From: an uncultured Candidatus Saccharibacteria bacterium
Lineage (GTDB): Bacteria; Patescibacteriota; Minisyncoccia; Phycocordibacterales; UBA2100
Reading direction: 5' to 3'
Assembly (NCBI GenBank): GCA_964534465.1
Contig: CAZHOB010000001.1
Coordinates: 33,870 to 97,869 of the forward strand
Length of the DNA stretch: 64,000 nucleotides
The notes under the pieces were generated by a model. That model had not been told where the DNA came from. It saw only the letters and a program-made list of their open reading frames with translations, and did no database searches. The stretch's first letter is position 1; each line of letters starts with the position of its first letter. The position numbers were made by a program, and so were the translations under genes. Below are positions 11,859 to 57,085 of this stretch, piece by piece.

Positions 11859-13325
11859 ATGGGTGTCTTCGATTGGTTCACACGTACGGGTGAGAAGCGT
11901 TCACCGCTGTATCTTTTCAACACGTTAGGCGGTAAGAAGGAAAAATTCGTGCCCGTACACGACAGTGAGGTGCGCATGTACAACTGCGGCCCTACCGTGT
12001 ACGGTCGCCAGCACATCGGCAATCTTTCTATGTTCGTTTTTACGGACATTGTGAGACGAACACTTATAAGGAGTGGCTACTCGGTAAAGCAAGTCATCAA
12101 TTTCACCGATTTCGGTCATCTCACGTCGGACGCCGATTCCGGCGAGGACAAGATGACCAAGGGTCTCAAGAGCGAGGGTCTCGCGCTCACTATGGAAAAC
12201 ATGCGTGCGCTCGGCGAAAAATACGCCAATCTTTTTCTCGAAGATCTCCGCGCGCTCAATTGCGACATCGACGGCATCATTTTCCCCCGTGCGAGCGACT
12301 ACGTGCAGGCACAGATCGCGATGATAGAGACACTCGTCGAGAAGGGTTTCGCCTATCAGGGCAAACATGGCGTCTATTTTGAGACTTCCAAATTTCCGCG
12401 CTACGGAAAGCTCGGAAATATCAATCTCGAAGAATTACGCGCTGGCGCGCGCGTCTCTTTCGATAAAGAGAAGCGCGGTCAACTCGATTTTTTACTCTGG
12501 AAGTCTGATCCGCACATGGGTTGGGATTCACCATGGGGCAAGGGCTTTCCGGGATGGCACATCGAGTGCTCGGCGATGATACGCGAGACGCTCGGCGAGC
12601 AGATAGACATCCATACCGGCGGCATCGAACACATACCCGTGCACCACAACAACGAGATAGCGCAGTCGGAGAGCGCGACAGGCAAACATCCGTTCTCTAA
12701 ATACTGGCTCCACCGCGCACATATTCAGCTCGAGGGCGGCAAGATAGCCAAATCAGTGGGTAATGTCGTGTACATGTTCGATGTTACCGAACGCGGCTGC
12801 CACCCACTATCACTCCGCTATCTATTCCTGAGTGCGCACTATCGCACACCGATGAACTTCACGTGGGAGGCTCTCTCTGCCGCCCAGACGGCGTATTCCA
12901 AACTGCTGGCAATGCGATTTGCGCACAAACCCTCATTTCCCGTCCGAAAGTGGACTGAAAAATTCAACAAACACGTCAACGACGATTTCGATACTCCGAA
13001 AGCGATTGCCGTCCTCTGGGAAATGACGAAGGATACTTCACTTACCGAGGGCGAAAAAGTCGCAACCATGATAGAGATGGACAAAGTGCTCGGTCTCAAT
13101 TTCGCCGAACCCGATGCAGCTGCAAGGGAGCTCGCACGCAAAGAGCTCCGCACGGCCATACCTAAGGAGAAAATAGACGCCAAGATCAAGGAGCTGCTCT
13201 TGGAGAGGCAACGCGCCCGTGAAAATAAAGACTACGCCCGCGCTGACGCCATTCGAACTCGTATCGAAGACCAGGGCTTTGAACTCGACGACTCCCCTTC
13301 CGGACCCGTACTCTACACCCGCTAA
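11859..13325 (+). CDS. cysS: Cysteinyl-tRNA synthetase
   Basis: MYNCGPTVYGRQHIGN (HIGH), zinc ligands, KIAKSVGN (KMSKS). Confidence 0.9.
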   Translation: MGVFDWFTRTGEKRSPLYLFNTLGGKKEKFVPVHDSEVRMYNCGPTVYGRQHIGNLSMFVFTDIVRRTLIRSGYSVKQVINFTDFGHLTSDADSGEDKMTKGLKSEGLALTMENMRALGEKYANLFLEDLRALNCDIDGIIFPRASDYVQAQIAMIETLVEKGFAYQGKHGVYFETSKFPRYGKLGNINLEELRAGARVSFDKEKRGQLDFLLWKSDPHMGWDSPWGKGFPGWHIECSAMIRETLGEQIDIHTGGIEHIPVHHNNEIAQSESATGKHPFSKYWLHRAHIQLEGGKIAKSVGNVVYMFDVTERGCHPLSLRYLFLSAHYRTPMNFTWEALSAAQTAYSKLLAMRFAHKPSFPVRKWTEKFNKHVNDDFDTPKAIAVLWEMTKDTSLTEGEKVATMIEMDKVLGLNFAEPDAAARELARKELRTAIPKEKIDAKIKELLLERQRARENKDYARADAIRTRIEDQGFELDDSPSGPVLYTR

Positions 13326-16300
13326 GCGCCTACAACGAAATTGACGAGACGGCCCGGCACGACGATCGTGCGAGCTATTTTTTGCCCCTCAAGACGCGCG
13401 GATACAGCTTCGCGCGCCGCCGCTTCGATAGCAGCCTTGTCGGAATCTTTTGAGACATCCACAGTGGCGCGGGTCTTGCCGTCGATCTGCACAGCGATAG
13501 TGATCGTATTTTCTACCAATTGCGAAATGTCGAATTCCGGCCATTTTTCGAGGTGGATGGACTTCTTTTTGCCCCATAATTCTTCGGCCACATGAGGGGC
13601 GAACGGCGAGAGGATCTTGAGAAAAGTTGACCACTCGTCGGGCGAAATTGCCTTCGCTTTTTCTATCGCGTTGAGCAGTATCATCATCTGACTGATGGCG
13701 GTATTGAATTTCATCTGTTCGATGTCCTTCCCCACTTTCTGTACCGTCTTGTGGAGTGCAGAACCGATGCTTGGCGCGTTTTTTGAGACGAGTTCCTGCA
13801 CGCGGCACACACGCTCCAAAAATCGACGCACACCGACCACGCCATCCGGATTCCACGGATAACTGGACACTTCGTGATACGGGCCGATAAAGGCCAAATA
13901 CATGCGTACGGTGTCAGCTCCGAGTCTCTCCACCACCTCATCAGGATCGATGACATTGCCGCGCGATTTGCTCATTTTTTGGCCATCTGGACCTAGAATG
14001 AGCGAACGATTTATTCTCCGCGCGTAGGGCTCTTCGTTCTCTACAAGTCCGAGATCGAAAAGAGCCTTTTGCCAGAACCGCGAATACAGAAGGTGCATCG
14101 TGGTGTGCTCGGCACCGCCTGAATAGAGGCTAACCGGCATCCAGTTCTGAATGCTTTTCTTGGCGGCGAATTCTTTTTTATTTTTGGGATCGGTGTAGCG
14201 CAAGAAATACCACGAGGAATCGACGAAGGTGTCGAGTGTATCAGTCTCACGTTTCGCGACACCTTTGCACAGCGGGCATTTTACATTGACCCACTTCGTG
14301 GCTTTCGCCAGCGGCGATTTGCCGCTGCCTTCGGGCAGATAATCCTTCACGGCAGGCAACTCGACAGGCAGATCTTTATCCGGCACTGGCTGCGCGCCAC
14401 ATTCAGGACAATGAATGATCGGTATCGGCACACCCCAGTATCTTTGGCGCGACACGATCCAATCGCGGAGTCTGAAGGTGGTCTTTTTGCGTCCGAATAC
14501 GTCGGTAATCGCTGCATTGGCTTCGGCGGAAGTCTTGCCGTCGTAAAGACCGGAGTTGATGAGAAAGCCGTCGCCGGTGTAGCTGTAATGGGGGTCTTGA
14601 ATGACGGAAGCGATGAACTCGCCCTCGAAAACGGTGAAGAATTCCATTAACTTATTTTTCTTGACCCAGACCACCTCGTGAAGTGATGCCTCCTTTTCAT
14701 CCACCGCATCCTTCTCGTCATTCTCGAGCTCAAAAAAGACGAAGTGGAAATGAGCGTGACGATTCTGCTTTTTGACACGGTGATAGAAGAAGGTGTTTAT
14801 TGTCCACTTGTGATTTTCGACATGGCGAAGATTTTTGTACCCTGTCTCCTCGTGAATTTCTCGGCGGGCAGTTTCGATGATGTCGTCATCTCCCTCGATG
14901 CCGCCGGTCACAAGACCGTGCATGTGGACGCCTCTCCATTTAATTGCGAGATAGGTGTCGTCCTTGGGATTGCGCACAACGGCGCATATGGCTTCCCTTT
15001 TGATGAATGGCTCGCCTTCTTTGATGGCATTTTCGCGGGTTCCGTTCGCTTTGAAGATCGGTTCGATGACATGCTTGATCGGCAGGCCAAATTTGCGGGC
15101 AAAGGCGTGATCGCGCTCGTCGTGCGCGGGCACTGCCATGATGGCCCCGGTGCCGTAGGAGGCGAGCACATAATCCGCTACATACATGGGGATTTTCTCA
15201 CCCGTCGCGGGATTGACGGCATCCACGCCCTCAAGCCGCACGCCGGTCTTGTCTTTTTGGTCGGTCATGCGTTCGAGCTCGGTCTTCTTAGTGGCCTGCG
15301 TGACATACGCAGAGACATGCTGCTCATTAGGCAAAAGACTTTTGTGACCGAGTGCCGCTTTTAACCACGGATGTTCGGGCGATAGGACAAGGTAAGTGGC
15401 ACCGAAGAGCGTATCGGGGCGCGTCGTGAAAACGCGGATAGTGGCGCGCAGCCACATCAAGACATCGGGCTCTGTGTCGCCCGTAAAGTGCGGCTTATTG
15501 GATATGCCGCGATGCGCTTTGATGCCGAGGAGCTTCTCGAGATCCGCGACTTGCCTCTCCGATATCGCATGGTCGCATGGATCATGAAGTAGCTGAATTA
15601 CCGGAGCGGTGGCGTGGATTTTTTTCGCATCGAACTCCCATTTGAAATCCTTCGCGAAATCACGCGGCCCGTCTTTGAAATGAGGGTCAGCAAAGCCTCC
15701 CACAAGGACAAGGCGGCTTATCTGTGACTTGAGACGCTCGACGACTTTCATTGCGACTACAGCGCCCAGACTATGTCCCATAAGGACAGTGTTTTCGTCG
15801 TAATCAGTGGCTTGAAGTGCTGCTTCGACCTGTTCTACTTCCGTGGGATTGTCAGTATTTGGCAGGGTGGGAATAATGACCTCATTGCCCATTTTTTCAA
15901 GCTCACTCTTTATCCAATTCCAGCGTGGAGTGTCGGGCTTACCGCCATAACCGTGCAAAATGACGTATTTGTTTTTTTTGCCAAAATCGAGAGGAAAATC
16001 AATTTCAGCCCCCTCCGAACGGCCGATCCAGTTACGCTGCGATTCTTTGATCTGTTCAGGCCAATCGAGAGTTGTGAGGTCGTCTATAAGGCGATCGGCG
16101 TAGCTGGTGATCATTACGTTCCATTGCAACATCATTCTTTGCTCAACAACCGAGCCGCAACGTTCGCAGCGGCCATCCACCACCTGCTCATTGGCAAGCA
16201 CTGTCTTGTCTTTCGGACACCAATTCACTGCAGTTTCCTTTTGATACGCCAAACCTTTTTTGAAAAGCTGAAGGAATTGCCACTGCGTCCATTTGTAGTA

Positions 16301-16711
16301 AGCGGGGTCGGCGGTAATGACCTCGCGCGACCAATCGAACGAGGTGCCCATCGACTCGATCTGCTTTTTCATGTACGCGATGTTGCCGAAGGTCCACTTT
16401 TTGGGATCCAATTTATTCTTTATCGCGGCATTCTCTGCGGGCAATCCAAATGCATCGAATCCCATGGGATAGAGCACATTTTTGCCGTCCATCCGTTTCT
16501 TGCGCGCGAGAATATCCGGCACTGCGAAAGCGTACCAGTGTCCTACGTGCAAATTGCCCGACGGATATGGGAACTCGACGAGCAGGTAGAAATTGTCCTT
16601 GCCTTTTACGCTGTCGGGAGTCTTGTGCAAACCGTCCTTTTTCCATTTGGCCTGCCATTTTTTCTCGATTTTCTTGTGGTCGTATCCGTGCATCAAGACA
16701 GCGTAGCACAA
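13322..16711 (-). CDS. leuS: Leucyl-tRNA synthetase carrying two inserted hydrolase domains (alpha/beta serine hydrolase and Nudix)
   Basis: HIGH motif (PYPSGNLHVGHWYAF), WIGRSEGAEIDF, TTRPDT editing motif, GTGAIMAVPAHDERD, KMSKS (GQKMSKSRGNV). Single uninterrupted 1129-aa frame, roughly 270 aa longer than a typical bacterial LeuRS. Confidence 0.9.
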   Translation of the reverse strand: MCYAVLMHGYDHKKIEKKWQAKWKKDGLHKTPDSVKGKDNFYLLVEFPYPSGNLHVGHWYAFAVPDILARKKRMDGKNVLYPMGFDAFGLPAENAAIKNKLDPKKWTFGNIAYMKKQIESMGTSFDWSREVITADPAYYKWTQWQFLQLFKKGLAYQKETAVNWCPKDKTVLANEQVVDGRCERCGSVVEQRMMLQWNVMITSYADRLIDDLTTLDWPEQIKESQRNWIGRSEGAEIDFPLDFGKKNKYVILHGYGGKPDTPRWNWIKSELEKMGNEVIIPTLPNTDNPTEVEQVEAALQATDYDENTVLMGHSLGAVVAMKVVERLKSQISRLVLVGGFADPHFKDGPRDFAKDFKWEFDAKKIHATAPVIQLLHDPCDHAISERQVADLEKLLGIKAHRGISNKPHFTGDTEPDVLMWLRATIRVFTTRPDTLFGATYLVLSPEHPWLKAALGHKSLLPNEQHVSAYVTQATKKTELERMTDQKDKTGVRLEGVDAVNPATGEKIPMYVADYVLASYGTGAIMAVPAHDERDHAFARKFGLPIKHVIEPIFKANGTRENAIKEGEPFIKREAICAVVRNPKDDTYLAIKWRGVHMHGLVTGGIEGDDDIIETARREIHEETGYKNLRHVENHKWTINTFFYHRVKKQNRHAHFHFVFFELENDEKDAVDEKEASLHEVVWVKKNKLMEFFTVFEGEFIASVIQDPHYSYTGDGFLINSGLYDGKTSAEANAAITDVFGRKKTTFRLRDWIVSRQRYWGVPIPIIHCPECGAQPVPDKDLPVELPAVKDYLPEGSGKSPLAKATKWVNVKCPLCKGVAKRETDTLDTFVDSSWYFLRYTDPKNKKEFAAKKSIQNWMPVSLYSGGAEHTTMHLLYSRFWQKALFDLGLVENEEPYARRINRSLILGPDGQKMSKSRGNVIDPDEVVERLGADTVRMYLAFIGPYHEVSSYPWNPDGVVGVRRFLERVCRVQELVSKNAPSIGSALHKTVQKVGKDIEQMKFNTAISQMMILLNAIEKAKAISPDEWSTFLKILSPFAPHVAEELWGKKKSIHLEKWPEFDISQLVENTITIAVQIDGKTRATVDVSKDSDKAAIEAAAREAVSARLEGQKIARTIVVPGRLVNFVVGA

Positions 16712-16743: not shown

Positions 16744-17730
16744 CTATTGTTTGACCGGTATGGGCGTCGGGATGCCGGAAGTCTTCGGGAATGGAGGATA
16801 ACGCTGAGGATCAATCCCGCGACTGAAGCACTGTTCCCCTGCCACGTGGTACCAAGTCTCATTTTGCGCGAGTTTATCGCCCACCGGCGCTGCGATGGGC
16901 CCTGAGAGGCCGTTGACAGTATCGGCCTGATTGGGATTGGTCTCGAGATTGAAGGTGGCGCAAAGCTTGAACGAATATTGGCCGGTAACGCTATACGAGT
17001 ACTCGTTGCCGCTCTGCGGGTCCTTCGGCATGTAATTATTTGATATCGGGTCGTAGAGATCGGAGATTGCGGCCGGCAACTTTTCCTTCTGCTGCCAGTA
17101 ATTGACGATCTGATACTGGATATTTTGGAGGTCGCTTATCTTTTGGTCGTCGAAGCGATACAAGCGTATCTGGCCGGGCGTACCCATGATGAGGAATCCC
17201 GCGACTATAGTGGCGAGTACAACTGCTCCCGCACCCCAGCCTACATAGCGAGCGCGTTCGGGAAATTTGAGCCAGAAGCCTTTGATGTCGGCAAGGAAGT
17301 GAAGGAATGCCGCGCCGGTGACCAGCAATACGATAAGTACTTTGAGAATGAAGTGCATGGTGATATCGCCGCCGAGGAAATAATTGATGAGCGTGATGAG
17401 GTCAACGACGACCGTGAGTCCCGCGGCAAAAACAGTGAAATACAACGCCCAGCGACGGATCCATATCTCCTGCCGCGTGACATCGCGCACCATGTCCTTG
17501 CGGATGAAACGCATGAGTACGAGGAAGAGCGGGAACATCACAAAAAGGATTGCCATCTGGTAGCGCATGGCGCTGCCATATGGGTCGATGTAGCGATTGA
17601 GAGCGTCGGGGAAGGAGTAGTCGATATAGCTGAAAAAGAGCGCAATAAGGGCAAAAACGCTCGAATAAAGGGCGATCATTGCCATGACCCAGAGGAAGAA
17701 ATCCTTGGGGCTTACCTTTGGTTTATCCAT
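16744..17730 (-). CDS. Hypothetical polytopic membrane protein with a C-terminal extracytoplasmic domain
   Basis: 328 aa with about 6 TM helices; no recognised motif. Confidence 0.5.
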   Translation of the reverse strand: MDKPKVSPKDFFLWVMAMIALYSSVFALIALFFSYIDYSFPDALNRYIDPYGSAMRYQMAILFVMFPLFLVLMRFIRKDMVRDVTRQEIWIRRWALYFTVFAAGLTVVVDLITLINYFLGGDITMHFILKVLIVLLVTGAAFLHFLADIKGFWLKFPERARYVGWGAGAVVLATIVAGFLIMGTPGQIRLYRFDDQKISDLQNIQYQIVNYWQQKEKLPAAISDLYDPISNNYMPKDPQSGNEYSYSVTGQYSFKLCATFNLETNPNQADTVNGLSGPIAAPVGDKLAQNETWYHVAGEQCFSRGIDPQRYPPFPKTSGIPTPIPVKQ

Positions 17731-23957: not shown

Positions 23958-24281
23958 TTAGGCGTGGTTGACCGAGGCACTGCGTGCGAGCGCGATAATG
24001 GCTTCGGGACTGTCTTTTTCTGACACGTCCACGCGTCGCACTTCTCCGCAACGGATGCACGAATGAACGATGCGGTAGTGAGGCGTCGTACCCTCCACGT
24101 TAATGGGCCTCATCATACCGGAACACGCCTCCGCTCTGTCGCCCGGATGCACATCTACGTGCTTGCTCCAAAGGCACACGGGGCAGTGATTGGTGTAGCC
24201 GGTGCCCACTACCTTCGCGCCACAGTGCTCACAGTCGAAATCCTCGACTTTTTTTTGGAATTTTTTGGACGGCATGATCAC
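23958..24281 (-). CDS. RNHCP-domain zinc-ribbon protein
   Basis: YTNHCPVCLWSKH motif plus additional Cys pairs. Confidence 0.55.
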   Translation of the reverse strand: MIMPSKKFQKKVEDFDCEHCGAKVVGTGYTNHCPVCLWSKHVDVHPGDRAEACSGMMRPINVEGTTPHYRIVHSCIRCGEVRRVDVSEKDSPEAIIALARSASVNHA

Positions 24282-25720
24282 TGGAGCGACAGCGTCGTCG
24301 TTTGCGTTACTGTATCACCTTTCAGCGACTTGCACTGAAGCGTGAACATGAGCGAGCTAGATGCGGCACCGGTCGTGGGCACGAGCTGCGTCCCTTCGTT
24401 AGCTTGCGCTATGAGCTGTGATGTGTCGATGAACAACCGGCATTTGTCGTCGTTCTTCATGCCGACGCTCGTCCATGAGACGAGCACTGAATCGCCGCGA
24501 CGTATGGCTATGGGCTGCGTGATGATGGTCGCCGCCGAGAGTGACGTGGACGGCGCGACGTAGCCGGTGTTGACGCTTTGAGTCGGGCCAATCGTACTGT
24601 AATTCCCACTGCTACCCGCATACGTCTGCAATTGTTCCAGTGCGGAGGTGTAGGAGATGGGCGATGTATTCGCGCTCGTCGGGCTCGTCTGCTGCCCGTA
24701 TGCGGCCATCTGCTGATTGAATGCTGCCGAGTAATCGGTAGGTGTATAAGAATATCCCGTCGATGTTTGACCGATAGAACTTGGATTAAATGACATACCA
24801 TACGGACTTCCTACCGAGGTCGGAGAACCGATGGAATATGGAGATGTCGAGGGAGGGGTAATGCCGCCAAATGGCGACATACCAAATGAACTCATGGGTT
24901 GCTGCGGCGGAAGATAGGCGCCTCCCATGAGACTCGTCGGAGGATACGACCAACTACTGGGATACGCCTGAACGGCATTCGCACTATAGCTTCCGGTCAT
25001 GCTCTCGTTGAGCAGCTGACCTACATTGGAGGGAGCGGGCACTCGAGCACCTCCACCCGCCATAGCTAAGCCCTGCTTTAGTTCGTTTGGATCATACGGA
25101 AGCGAACCCGCTTCGTAGCAGGACATTGCAAGGGCAAGACGTCCCATGAGGTCGACGTCATTGGGATCGAAAACCTCATTGACGGGGATGCCCGCCGCCC
25201 TAGAAACGAAATCGGCATACGCGGGCACGTCGCCTGAGATGCCCGTCCATTGCTGCACGACACTTCCTATAGTGCAGCGACCACGCTCTCCGCAGTACCG
25301 TCTCAAAAGTTCGATGTGCGCGGCAAATCCATAGGAAACGGCTGGGAATATGGCGGTGTTGTTGTTGGGATGACAGCCGATGGAATTCCACCGGCTCGCG
25401 GTGGGTCCGCAGACTTGCGCGCCCGTATTGCGCGTACGACAAGACAAAGTGCATGTATCCCTACTGCACGGGGACATGCTTTTTATCTTTGCGTACCATT
25501 GATCGAAATCCTGTCCGATGCCGAGTATGGCGGTGTCTTTTGGACATGTCTCAAAAGCGACGGGAATGCCGCGATCAGTCAACTGTTTCGCTTCATCCGC
25601 GGTCGTGTAATGACAACCCGGACCAAGAGGCATATCGGAGGGTGGTAAGTCGGCCATAACAGCAAGGGGTATGGCAGCTGCAATGATGCAGCTCGCCAAT
25701 AATGCTACGCGCGAACTCAT
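24278..25720 (-). CDS. Secreted Cys-rich protein with a long S/Y/G/P/T-rich low-complexity linker and a C-terminal beta domain
   Basis: Signal peptide MSSRVALLASCIIAAAIPLAVMA, Cys-rich N-domain, then roughly 200 aa of low complexity. Start trimmed to avoid overlapping atpC. Confidence 0.55.
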   Translation of the reverse strand: MSSRVALLASCIIAAAIPLAVMADLPPSDMPLGPGCHYTTADEAKQLTDRGIPVAFETCPKDTAILGIGQDFDQWYAKIKSMSPCSRDTCTLSCRTRNTGAQVCGPTASRWNSIGCHPNNNTAIFPAVSYGFAAHIELLRRYCGERGRCTIGSVVQQWTGISGDVPAYADFVSRAAGIPVNEVFDPNDVDLMGRLALAMSCYEAGSLPYDPNELKQGLAMAGGGARVPAPSNVGQLLNESMTGSYSANAVQAYPSSWSYPPTSLMGGAYLPPQQPMSSFGMSPFGGITPPSTSPYSIGSPTSVGSPYGMSFNPSSIGQTSTGYSYTPTDYSAAFNQQMAAYGQQTSPTSANTSPISYTSALEQLQTYAGSSGNYSTIGPTQSVNTGYVAPSTSLSAATIITQPIAIRRGDSVLVSWTSVGMKNDDKCRLFIDTSQLIAQANEGTQLVPTTGAASSSLMFTLQCKSLKGDTVTQTTTLSLQ

Positions 25721-25772
25721 TGCCCTATTATAATGGGAAAAATCGAAGGAGCGGGAAGAAATGTTGAAAAGA

Positions 25773-26021
25773 CTAGAGCAACACGACGGCGCGGTTGTTG
25801 GAGCATTCAACGACGCCGCTGTCGACTTCGAATTGCTCGGGTTCTTTGCCTTCGGTGCGCACGGTGATGTGGCCATGCTTTAGCGTGGTAACTATAGGTT
25901 CGTGATGAGCGAGGACGGTGAACTCGCCGGCCTCTCCGGGGAGAGTCGCGGAAACGACAGGGCCGTCGAATCGCGTTTCCCCTACTGAAGCGATGACCAA
26001 ATGGAAGGTCGGGTGCGCCAT
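25773..26021 (-). CDS. atpC: F1 ATP synthase epsilon subunit (N-terminal beta-sandwich only)
   Basis: FHLVIASVGETRFDGPVVSATLPGEAGEFTVLAHHEPIVTTLKHGHITV. Confidence 0.75.
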   Translation of the reverse strand: MAHPTFHLVIASVGETRFDGPVVSATLPGEAGEFTVLAHHEPIVTTLKHGHITVRTEGKEPEQFEVDSGVVECSNNRAVVLL

Positions 26022-55245: not shown

Positions 55246-55309
55246 GGCTGCTATTGTAGCATCACTCGTTCCATGCTTTCATCCTACACAGTGGATCAGG
55301 GAGTAAACG

Positions 55310-57085
55310 ATGCATCCCGTACTTCAGCGTTCAGCGGAACTCTACGCGCGCGCAAAAAAAAGTTATCGACAAAAGCGCTTTTTGACCTACGTAAAACGGA
55401 TCGACAATGTGATCTCGAATAATTGGTCGGATCGCCAAGCATTCTTCAGCGAAGCGCAGCAATTGCGCGCAAAAGCCGATCCAAAGGCACTGCGGCATCT
55501 CTGGATATTTTCCCACTCATCGCTCGCGGTGTTCGAGGAATTCATCCTCGATGCGCTTATGAGGAAAACATTTGCCGATGTCCTCGACATGGTGGAGGAG
55601 CCGCGGCTCTTTCATCCGGCCATCGAGTTCTCTCTGCAACTCTTCGGAAGAAATGTGACAAAGAGAGCGAGCAATCCGGATCTTTTGCCCGAGAACAAGT
55701 GGGCCGATACGGCCAATTACTTTTTCGGCAAATATGAGAATCTCCTTCGAAGAAGAGACCTGAAGTACTTCGTCGAAAAAGAGAGCGTCGTAGAGCTCGT
55801 TCCGATGCCGCAGATGGATGAAGAATCCGCTGCGCGGCTCATACCCGCAAAGAAGCGCGAGTTCGCGCCGCAGCACTTCAAACTCCACGCGTACTCGATG
55901 CCCTTTCGCGTTCTCCACTCAGGGCTAATGCTCTCAGATTTCATCGATGCAATAGCAGAGCGCATCGATGTGGTCATCAAAGATGTCGAGTGGAAAGATC
56001 AGCCCGCTGATTGGCGCTCGGTCGACCGCCTCTCCTACTTTCTGATGCAAGCCGCTGAGAAGGGCTACTGGCCGCTTTTCCGCGAAGTTCCGCGTGAAGT
56101 GATGTCGGCAAAACGCATCACCATGTGTTACAACGGCTGCCAGCCCTCTGTCATCAAGGAGGTCTTCGAATCCCGCATTGGCGACACAGTGGACTGGGAA
56201 AAAAGCCTGCGACGCACGATGAACGGCAGATTGCCCGTCGGACTCAAGCTTCACTTCACAAAACCGACGAACCTGCAGGAGGTATTCAAGCACTCGATGT
56301 TCAAGCTGGAAGGTGCCGCGAATACGGTGATCCTACCGCCACTGGGCAGTATTGAGGTTGTAGCGGAGATACTTGAACGGATCGAAAAAATGTGGGGCCA
56401 GCCTATCCTCGGCAATCCCGACGTGCAGATACAGGTATGCAGTGGAGTCGAGCTCGATCAACGATACGCGGCACTGCTCGGTATTTGTTTTTACCTCGGC
56501 TCCGACAAGATCCGCCGATATCGCAGTGGCGATTTCGTGACATCGCACTCCGAAACGGGCGGACGGCTCGTGGTCTACGGCGTGCCCGGCATGATCGAGC
56601 GTGAGTTTGCATGGTGGGACAAAGACCACAAAGGTAAGCTCGTCTCGACGGACATTCCGTATTCGATCACACGTCGCACCGACGTGCTCACCTGCACGAG
56701 CCTGCTCGATATCGACAACGTAAATCTCATCTCTACATTGCTCGGACACTCGCAGCACAACGGATTTTGGGGAGACATGGGTCGGCGCTTTGCCGTCGAC
56801 GTCGAGAATCTGCTCAAAGAGCATGACCTCTCGGGCTTGCTCGCCGTAGACTGGATATTCCGCAATGAAGCGGCCGTCGATAAACGCGATCGCGACGGCA
56901 CGCTTTTCTTCGACATGTTCAGCGAGCTCATGGAGTATGCGTTCGCCGAATATGAGAGAATAGAAGAAGCCAAAAAGCGCGGTGATACTGCAGCGGCAGA
57001 GAACGGTATCTTACTGCAGATGCAAAATCTTCTGCAGAAGTACCGTGCCGAGCACAGAGCACTCGCACAAAAGGAGCAACCATGA
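55310..57085 (+). CDS. Large hypothetical protein (591 aa), no recognisable domain
   Basis: Long uninterrupted ORF transcribed divergently from the glycolytic operon. Confidence 0.6.
   Translation: MHPVLQRSAELYARAKKSYRQKRFLTYVKRIDNVISNNWSDRQAFFSEAQQLRAKADPKALRHLWIFSHSSLAVFEEFILDALMRKTFADVLDMVEEPRLFHPAIEFSLQLFGRNVTKRASNPDLLPENKWADTANYFFGKYENLLRRRDLKYFVEKESVVELVPMPQMDEESAARLIPAKKREFAPQHFKLHAYSMPFRVLHSGLMLSDFIDAIAERIDVVIKDVEWKDQPADWRSVDRLSYFLMQAAEKGYWPLFREVPREVMSAKRITMCYNGCQPSVIKEVFESRIGDTVDWEKSLRRTMNGRLPVGLKLHFTKPTNLQEVFKHSMFKLEGAANTVILPPLGSIEVVAEILERIEKMWGQPILGNPDVQIQVCSGVELDQRYAALLGICFYLGSDKIRRYRSGDFVTSHSETGGRLVVYGVPGMIEREFAWWDKDHKGKLVSTDIPYSITRRTDVLTCTSLLDIDNVNLISTLLGHSQHNGFWGDMGRRFAVDVENLLKEHDLSGLLAVDWIFRNEAAVDKRDRDGTLFFDMFSELMEYAFAEYERIEEAKKRGDTAAAENGILLQMQNLLQKYRAEHRALAQKEQP

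Follow-up and report, generated by a model that had tools for sequence, protein, structure and literature searches.

A bacterial-type leucyl-tRNA synthetase with a predicted serine hydrolase and a predicted Nudix hydrolase inserted in its CP1 editing domain

The window analysed here, a 64-kb stretch of contig CAZHOB010000001.1 from an uncultured Candidatus Saccharibacteria bacterium taken at its full length, contains a leuS gene for a bacterial-type leucyl-tRNA synthetase (LeuRS) that carries two additional enzyme domains in one reading frame: an RBBP9/YdeN-like serine hydrolase (insert 1) and a Nudix hydrolase (insert 2). As judged from their sequence motifs, both are apparently complete and catalytically competent enzymes, and alignment places both within CP1, the editing domain with which class Ia synthetases clear wrong aminoacyl products. 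We read this LeuRS as the housekeeping enzyme of a Kaiserbacteria-like member of the Patescibacteria. We give roughly even odds (a probability of about 0.5) to the reading that the inserts are functionally coupled to LeuRS as a built-in clean-up module for its products and by-products.

An earlier interpretation of this DNA from its letters alone (the sequence-only reading) had described a single uninterrupted LeuRS frame with the canonical motifs, and both points were borne out: the open reading frame (ORF) at 13322..16711 on the minus strand is free of stops, encodes 1129 residues when counted from an upstream TTG and is shared by many assemblies, while HVGH, TTRPDT and KMSKS, and HDERD too, were verified at the coordinates listed below. 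The start was moved, because the database protein P0001, 100% identical to the window LeuRS, is 1123 residues long and the homology to solved LeuRS structures sets in at residue 8; leuS thus probably starts at the ATG at 16693 (Met7), with the in-frame TTG at 16711 further upstream. As in the sequence-only reading, residues of the window LeuRS are counted here from the TTG, which makes their numbers 6 higher than in the likely real protein. The protein scores 946.6 bits against TIGR00396 (leuS_bact, cut-off 548.4), and its best Protein Data Bank (PDB) matches are the LeuRS of T. thermophilus (Tt; 1H3N, E=1.7e-215), N. gonorrhoeae and E. coli. A full-length AlphaFold (AF2) model has a mean pLDDT of 86.3, with both inserts folded confidently, junctions included, and Foldseek superimposed it on the T. 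thermophilus, E. coli and N. gonorrhoeae enzymes with a target-normalised TM-score of mostly 0.7-0.8. HVGH (residues 55-58) and KMSKS (residues 912-916) are each kept in 119-121 of 121 relatives, the match to the CP1 editing domain PF13603 (E=9e-54) is interrupted by both inserts, and the CP1 motifs TTRxDT and HDxRD are intact in 69-70 of 70 species. The gene is laid out as follows:

13322..16693, minus strand: leuS coding sequence, bacterial-type LeuRS, probable start (stop TAG at 13322-13324; TIGR00396, identity to P0001)
15986..16690, minus strand: N-terminal half of the catalytic domain, residues 8-242, with HVGH (16538-16549), ZN1 and the first CP1 strand WIGRSEGAEIDF (aligns to Tt LeuRS 2-237)
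15443..15985, minus strand: insert 1, predicted RBBP9/YdeN-like alpha/beta serine hydrolase, residues 243-423 (Pfam, PDB matches, pLDDT ~90-96)
15488-15778, minus strand: predicted sites of insert 1, namely GHSLG 15764-15778, Ser314 15770-15772, Asp380 15572-15574, Asp377 15581-15583 and His408 15488-15490
15629-15679, minus strand: conserved loop of insert 1, FKDxxRxF...FxWxxD
15062..15442, minus strand: core of the CP1 editing domain, residues 424-550, with TTRPDT (15410-15427) and HDERD (15110-15124) (PF13603; aligns to Tt 242-363)
14588..15061, minus strand: insert 2, predicted Nudix hydrolase domain, residues 551-708, with the Nudix box at 14837-14905 (Pfam, fold model)
13985..14587, minus strand: C-terminal portion of CP1 plus the second catalytic half, residues 709-909, with the Zn-knuckle motifs CPEC (14399-14410) and CPLC (14267-14278) (aligns to Tt 375-581; Cys invariant)
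13964..13993, minus strand: GPDG in place of the leucine-specific domain, then the KMSKS loop (alignment to Tt LeuRS)
13325..13963, minus strand: anticodon-binding and C-terminal tRNA-binding domains, residues 917-1129 (PF08264, alignment)

In the alignment to 1H3N, Tt residues 238-241 give way to insert 1 and Tt residues 364-374 to insert 2. Since both positions fall in Tt 224-417, which we take to be approximately the editing domain of 1H3N, the alignment puts both inserts inside CP1, insert 1 in the hairpin of the first two strands and insert 2 in the variable loop after HDxRD. The sequence-only reading had assigned the Nudix domain to the leucine-specific region, an assignment that does not survive this alignment: the leucine-specific domain (Tt ~577-634) is absent from the window protein, in which residues 909-912 bridge Tt 581-637 and only GPDG stands before KMSKS. 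In a 75-sequence family alignment, P908-D909-G910 show at least 90% conservation, while G907 and Q911 do not vary. A leucine-specific domain before KMSKS is typical of bacterial-type LeuRS and not universal, and one report (PMC3643597) provides a precedent for its absence in the LeuRS of Mycoplasma mobile, with a GKDG tetrapeptide that resembles the GPDG seen here. With the synthetic and CP1 editing sites intact by sequence, the inserts are predicted to supplement CP1, adding to these activities rather than replacing them.

Insert 1 had been read as a serine hydrolase, and profile searches upheld this: it scores 28.7-31.2 bits against Pfam Ser_hydrolase PF06821 (cut-off 22) and 29-32 bits against Abhydrolase_6 (above the curated cut-off), with human RBBP9 (2QS9/9FCR, E=1e-8) and B. 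subtilis YdeN (1UXO, E=6e-7) as its top PDB matches and residues 243-423 as its bounds. The nucleophile Ser, the Asp and the His that it was said to retain are conserved in relatives as well. The predicted triad consists of Ser314 in the GxSxG elbow G-H-S314-L-G, D380 and H408; among the 121 closest sequences, Ser314 and His408 never vary and position 377 holds Asp in 120/121, and the Ser is kept in 72/72 and the His in 71/72 of the species surveyed below. D380 is more likely to be the catalytic acid than D377, because it pairs with D138 of RBBP9 and is Asp or Glu in 72/72 species versus 63/72 for D377. Like RBBP9 and YdeN (PF06821), insert 1 has a minimal alpha/beta fold with a GxSxG elbow and a Ser-Asp-His triad, but these proteins are free-standing and only ~25-30% similar to it, the alpha-amine-binding and pocket residues of RBBP9 are not conserved at the aligned positions, and the LeuRS-type hydrolase clade has a conserved loop of its own (F345-K-D347-x-x-R350-x-F352...F356-x-W358-x-x-D361). 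Neither insert has a Pfam or NCBIfam match that would indicate homology to YbaK/INS (PF04073), AlaX or DTD. An intein or another mobile protein element was rejected as an explanation of the inserts, as the Pfam matches of the LeuRS include no Hint or intein families and the insert boundaries are ordinary family-conserved linkers.

Insert 2 is matched by Pfam NUDIX PF00293 at E=5e-14 in the full protein and at 1.9e-15 as the insert alone (52.8-57.5 bits, cut-off 21.1). The previous call of a Nudix domain with intact catalytic Glu residues therefore stood, while its bounds shifted from residues 565-715 to 551-708 (nt 14588-15061). The 23-residue Nudix box GGIEGDDDIIETARREIHEETGY (residues 603-625) agrees with the consensus G-x5-E-x7-REUxEExGU except at position 7, which is Asp in the window protein and Glu in 94/102 close relatives. 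E16, E19 and E20 are intact in 43/43 copies from the 72-species set, triple-Nudix proteins included, and the Gly, Arg, Glu and Gly positions of the box are 96-100% conserved in the 121 closest sequences; 18 residues beyond the box there is an aromatic position, Tyr or Phe. The AF2 model of insert 2 has a pLDDT of 84.5, and its Foldseek comparison to Nudix structures reaches E=6e-9 (TM 0.67/0.75), the matches being human Ap4A hydrolase 4IJX (rank 3), E. coli RppH (Ap4A complex 7SP3), NudI, MutT-like enzymes and ADP-ribose pyrophosphatase with similar scores. In its complete Nudix box and fold, insert 2 is like the Nudix Ap4A/ApnA hydrolases and the RppH/NudI/MutT-type enzymes, from which it differs in being part of a synthetase, and its closest relatives are free Nudix proteins of 154-168 residues from the same candidate phylum.

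The sequence-only reading had left it to a sequence search whether relatives share the inserts, and they do. A protein search recovered over 100 clusters (59-70% identity). They come from independent assemblies (NCBI, JGI, ENA and Logan), most have both extra domains, and a ~965-1004-aa subset has the hydrolase only; sources that bear a name are Candidatus Kaiserbacteria, Paceibacterota, Parcubacteria, Minisyncoccota and 'Patescibacteria group'. A census with one genome per species, scanned with a close-family hydrolase alignment, yielded 72 species-level Patescibacteria genomes with the hydrolase in LeuRS (36/72 also with the Nudix domain), among them the closed 859-kb chromosome CP066682.1; because the close-family alignment favours LeuRS-embedded copies, the census is unusable for host preferences. 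With A denoting the N-terminal catalytic half, H the hydrolase, B and C the CP1 parts, N the Nudix domain and D the part from KMSKS to the C-terminus, the following architectures were found:

A-H-B-C-D: 33 genomes and 1 truncated
A-H-B-N-C-D (the window type): 32 genomes
A-H-A-B-C-D (hydrolase at an earlier site): 2 genomes
A-N-N-A-H-B-N-C-D (three Nudix domains, up to 1735 aa): 4 genomes, 2 of them truncated

Mean pairwise identity is 47% and 42% for the inserts and 66-80% for the synthetase core. Conservation across species indicates purifying selection on all three predicted hydrolytic sites (hydrolase, Nudix and CP1), and fast-changing inserts with kept catalytic residues would fit accessory enzymes that are retained for their catalysis. 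In one relative (P0146), a split leuS was suggested by an 897-aa gene call that starts at the hydrolase and was rejected: the upstream DNA keeps the frame open with the full architecture, as the locus (L003:3167-6694, plus strand) holds an unbroken ORF of 1175 aa that includes the whole N-terminal catalytic half, and P0146 is therefore a truncated gene call. Several other database proteins also begin at the hydrolase and may be similar mis-calls. Giant LeuRS genes at L028:4156-9360 (plus strand, 1735 codons) and L057:4057-8733 (plus strand, 1559 codons) encode three Nudix domains and the hydrolase, with all Nudix glutamates kept. Extra LeuRS inserts of ~100-200 aa were seen between the hydrolase and CP1 (L040:5146-8973, plus strand), between CP1 and the second catalytic half (L035:5263-8559 and L065:5266-8559, plus strand) and inside the zinc-knuckle region (L051:5215-8673, plus strand).

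We searched insert 1 against 1.8 billion representative proteins and mapped domains with local hidden Markov models (HMMs) and Pfam. Within LeuRS, the hydrolase clade occupies three sites (before the WIGRSEG strand, in the first CP1 hairpin, and after the first CxxC of the post-CP1 zinc knuckle), and the Nudix domain three or more, in varied orders and up to three copies. Outside LeuRS, free-standing hydrolase-Nudix fusions occur (P0222, P0216), and one free fusion gene of this kind lies in a Ham1-Nudix-Nudix cluster adjoining Sua5. Other hosts of the hydrolase are UvrA, SecA, archaeal-type Kae1, an Fmt-like formyltransferase (Fmt being its best match, below the family cut-off), AlaRS (with the hydrolase between the catalytic and editing domains) and ValRS (P0187, P0165, P0176, P0267, P0208, P0188). 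A MetRS-C-type tRNA-binding domain, thioredoxin and flavokinase each occur as fusion partners of classical YdeN-like hydrolases; the fusion with the tRNA-binding domain belongs to a conserved RuvX-tRNA_bind-VTT-PilM gene order, from which the hydrolase is missing in another genome. The fusion partners of the hydrolase other than LeuRS are mostly tRNA-handling (ValRS, AlaRS, Fmt, Kae1 and tRNA_bind). Trees built by neighbour joining from the LeuRS core and from the hydrolase domains carry no support values and therefore give only hints of repeated gain, loss or relocation.

Of seven free-standing genes from the LeuRS-type hydrolase clade, six are found no more than 1.4 kb away from leuS, and five directly adjoin it or share its operon:

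P0138 (L087): 7 nt upstream of a leuS without inserts
P0153 (L093): 37 nt upstream of a leuS without inserts
P0149 (L091): 25 nt upstream of a leuS with the Nudix insert only
P0175 (L097): 3 nt downstream of leuS, Sua5 coming next and Ham1 lying upstream
P0151 (L090): operon of hydrolase, hydrolase, YbaK-like deacylase, Ham1 and archaeal-type LeuRS
P0174 (L096): 1.3 kb from leuS
P0157 (L094): no aminoacyl-tRNA synthetase (aaRS) nearby on a 3-kb contig

The LeuRS of the L090 operon scores 784 bits against TIGR00395 (above the cut-off), and the deacylase gene of this operon has a Pfam tRNA_edit match, its best NCBIfam match being YbaK/EbsC, below the family cut-off. A classical YdeN-like control gene adjoins a HIT-family gene, not an aaRS gene. 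The hydrolase clade is thus strongly linked to LeuRS in the genome even when unfused, in several orientations and with both bacterial- and archaeal-type LeuRS. In the row of Ham1, leuS, hydrolase and Sua5, a RelB/ParE-type toxin-antitoxin pair (L097:1045-1568, plus strand) lies immediately upstream of leuS.

In the proposed module, the serine hydrolase would provide an extra, Ser314-dependent clearance of mis-acylated aminoacyl-tRNA and/or released aminoacyl-adenylate, whereas the Nudix domain would dispose of a nucleotide that arises as a by-product or contaminant (for example Ap4A, another ApnN or a non-canonical NTP), with Ham1 perhaps taking the place of Nudix in some operons; the pair would serve as a clean-up module in an organism that has very few stand-alone genes for quality control. 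Ap4A is the obvious candidate substrate for the Nudix domain, because it is a by-product of synthetases and because the best structural matches include Ap4A hydrolase and RppH. The aminoacyl-tRNA ester and aminoacyl-adenylate carry the same aminoacyl group with a free alpha-amine as the substrates of RBBP9. The putative role of Ser314 as an aminoacyl hydrolase draws on RBBP9, an aminopeptidase for hydrophobic or aromatic N-terminal residues that cleaves aminoacyl bonds and requires a free alpha-amine (PMC8866121), and on the partner spectrum of LeuRS, ValRS, AlaRS, Fmt, tRNA_bind and a YbaK-like neighbour. More tentatively, the RBBP9/YdeN-like domain may represent an unrecognised class of aminoacyl-tRNA/aminoacyl-adenylate hydrolase: an editing factor of the alpha/beta-hydrolase fold, partnered by a Nudix or Ham1 pyrophosphatase, that would act in Patescibacteria and DPANN archaea either in cis (LeuRS, ValRS, AlaRS) or in trans (beside leuS, or as the tRNA-binding fusion), a generalisation that we regard as possible yet doubtful.

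Several findings weigh against a coupling of the inserts to synthetase chemistry. The residues with which RBBP9 binds the alpha-amine (Ser76, Tyr99 and Glu108) are not conserved in insert 1, where they align with L315 (Leu in 72/72), F340 and P349, and the idea that the conserved D347 (60/72) and R350 (69/72) of the loop could stand in for them is speculation. Insert 2 has 14-22% identity to all of its structural matches and bears no subfamily signature; one free-standing relative of it does not adjoin leuS. Among the hosts of the hydrolase clade are UvrA and SecA, neither of which has aminoacyl chemistry, as well as archaeal-type Kae1. The gene neighbourhoods were sampled at 7 genes that are phylogenetically non-independent. 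Moreover, LeuRS of related lineages hold other CP1-proximal domains, namely a Y1 transposase-like (IS200-like) domain in P0186 (residues 269-374), a GNAT domain in P0230 (306-388) and a HAD domain in P0182 (428-583). With such inserts in the same LeuRS region, the CP1 region is an insertion hot-spot whose loops may merely tolerate insertions, and the hydrolase is a promiscuous insert.

The latter findings therefore make a serious rival of the reading in which the inserts are independent housekeeping enzymes (an aminopeptidase or esterase and a nucleotide-pool sanitiser), passengers or moonlighting domains lodged in permissive loops, where fusion secures co-expression or resists loss. In addition to the UvrA, SecA and Kae1 hosts and the thioredoxin and flavokinase fusions of YdeN-like proteins, this explanation would account for inserts that change much faster than the core, for the ~100-200-aa inserts in the same region of related LeuRS, for the free-standing relatives of the Nudix insert elsewhere in the genome and for the lack of the Nudix domain in about half of the species. 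A pure passenger is, however, hard to reconcile with the linkage to LeuRS without fusion, the unfused hydrolase lying beside leuS in 5/7 cases in different orientations and with bacterial- and archaeal-type LeuRS; nor would it predict a YbaK-type aminoacyl-tRNA deacylase in one of these operons, the enrichment of tRNA-handling proteins among the fusion partners or the recurrence of the hydrolase-Nudix pair outside LeuRS, and we consider it unlikely. The suggestion of added proofreading or by-product clearance made in the sequence-only reading is thus partly supported: the observation of the inserts is confirmed and the interpretation has gained comparative support from the recurrent LeuRS fusions, the leuS-adjacent genes and the YbaK-like/Ham1 operon, while the non-conserved RBBP9 amine-binding residues and the UvrA and SecA hosts leave a part of it unproven.

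By analogy, the hydrolase (with Nudix, GNAT or HAD) could instead be an antidote against Trojan-horse aminoacyl-nucleotide inhibitors mimicking leucyl-adenylate, splitting their aminoacyl-nucleotide bond or breaking down the nucleotide on the very enzyme that they target. Patescibacteria live attached to other bacteria, and an IleRS with a GNAT domain is on record as NCBIfam NF040702; the HIT-family gene next to the classical YdeN-like gene would also fit. Immunity to such inhibitors is conferred by the serine peptidase MccF and the GNAT enzyme MccE2, and a HAD hydrolase has been suggested for it (PMC8323819); all three classes (serine hydrolase, GNAT in P0230 and HAD in P0182) are found inserted in these LeuRS. 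The likeness to MccF and MccE2, which inactivate aminoacyl-nucleotide inhibitors, is one of function, whereas insert 1 is not homologous to MccF (its Pfam matches are only to alpha/beta-hydrolase families), and MccF and MccE2 sit in antibiotic gene clusters, not inside the target enzyme. An antidote, which rests wholly on analogy, would moreover leave the tRNA_bind fusion, the YbaK-like neighbour, Fmt, UvrA and SecA unexplained, and it appears improbable to us. We know of no aminoacyl-nucleotide inhibitor for these organisms.

Even less probable is a role in substrate supply, in which an RBBP9-like aminopeptidase would free N-terminal Leu or other hydrophobic residues from scavenged peptides beside the synthetase, for an amino-acid auxotroph. 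Patescibacteria have limited biosynthetic capacity, and the hydrolase is linked to LeuRS, ValRS and AlaRS. The sole biochemistry of the family, the human RBBP9 aminopeptidase with its preference for hydrophobic or aromatic N-terminal residues (PMC8866121), also speaks for such a role, but the RBBP9 specificity residues are not conserved, and the tRNA_bind fusion, the YbaK-like neighbour, Kae1, Fmt and the pairing with Nudix or Ham1 would go unexplained. Finally, an artefact, be it the assembly chimera that the sequence-only reading had named as what could undo it, a pseudogene or a mis-joined frame, which only the unusual length and the mis-started gene calls of some homologues (P0146) would favour, was rejected as a practically negligible possibility, given the uninterrupted frame, the absence of any composition break at the insert junctions in the window DNA, more than 100 independent collinear assemblies and a closed chromosome, conserved catalytic motifs and a model that is confident across the junctions.

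Returning to the clean-up module, a close parallel is the post-transfer editing domain CP1 of LeuRS, IleRS and ValRS, which is likewise a hydrolytic domain inserted in a synthetase; here the inserts lie in CP1 or at its hinge, and in the ValRS and AlaRS relatives the hydrolase adjoins the editing domain. Unlike CP1, which has its own fold and a Thr-rich/Asp site and is retained here, the added domain is a predicted Ser-Asp-His alpha/beta hydrolase, and to our knowledge no editing domain or trans-editing factor with an alpha/beta-hydrolase fold is known. The module also recalls the trans-editing deacylases (YbaK/ProXp, AlaX and DTD), small hydrolases that back fidelity, in that a YbaK-like gene shares an operon with two hydrolases and LeuRS, but the inserts have no sequence or fold kinship with them. 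Synthetases with appended or inserted domains are already known, and both the IleRS-GNAT protein (NF040702) and the MetRS of Mycoplasma penetrans, which has N-terminal ancillary domains (PMC13215547), resemble the window LeuRS as synthetases of streamlined genomes with added enzyme-like domains. In contrast to these, the window LeuRS combines two unrelated hydrolases that are internal, lie within the editing domain and recur in permuted arrangements.

The double-hydrolase LeuRS architecture seems to be undescribed, as had been presumed. A full-text search, with most subscription journals outside its reach, returned no published description of a LeuRS or any other aaRS with Nudix or alpha/beta-hydrolase inserts. 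The main texts of the AARS Online database paper, a catalogue of aaRS domain superfamilies, and of another aaRS paper do not contain the words Nudix or hydrolase, and a literature search on YdeN, PF06821 and DUF1234 gave author-name matches only. Homologues have stood in public databases for years, labelled automatically with names such as 'class I tRNA ligase family protein', 'alpha/beta fold hydrolase' and 'NUDIX domain-containing protein'.

The modules of translation fidelity (CP1, INS/YbaK, AlaX/ThrRS-N2 and DTD) are thought to be well catalogued, and a hydrolase and a Nudix enzyme in the editing domain of an essential synthetase, kept in a large share of the Patescibacteria and tied to LeuRS in the genome even when unfused, would extend this catalogue. 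If the hydrolase does act on aminoacyl products, this would be the first physiological role in prokaryotes for the orphan PF06821 family, bacterial YdeN included; the proposal gives this RBBP9/YdeN family a concrete, testable hypothesis. It would also suggest how genomes of ~0.6-1 Mb fold quality control or house-cleaning into core proteins. The LeuRS CP1 loops accommodate whole-enzyme insertions, which may be useful in protein engineering. Even if the inserts are passengers, the repeated insertion of one small hydrolase in so many essential proteins of very small prokaryotes (LeuRS, ValRS, AlaRS, Kae1, Fmt, UvrA and SecA) is a case of unusual domain mobility.

A family HMM search of the 64-kb window found no further hydrolase or Nudix copies. 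Two stop-free frames of 533 and 592 codons (24281-25879, minus strand, and 55307-57082, plus strand) match no Pfam family at E<=1e-5. Directly upstream of leuS lies a DUF5671 protein gene (16744-17730, minus strand), whose product is membrane-spanning by the look of its translation, and the other neighbours are ordinary housekeeping genes (S41 peptidase, CorA, HI0933-like flavoprotein, an ATP synthase subunit, a PBP and, by reading of the translation, a YchF-like GTPase). A 488-aa ORF that reads as cysteinyl-tRNA synthetase-like in translation (11859-13325, plus strand) converges on leuS, the 3' ends overlapping by 4 nt. About 12 related genomes have a class I synthetase-like ORF of ~500 aa on the same strand as leuS and 1.5-3 kb upstream of it, an arrangement that differs from that in the window.

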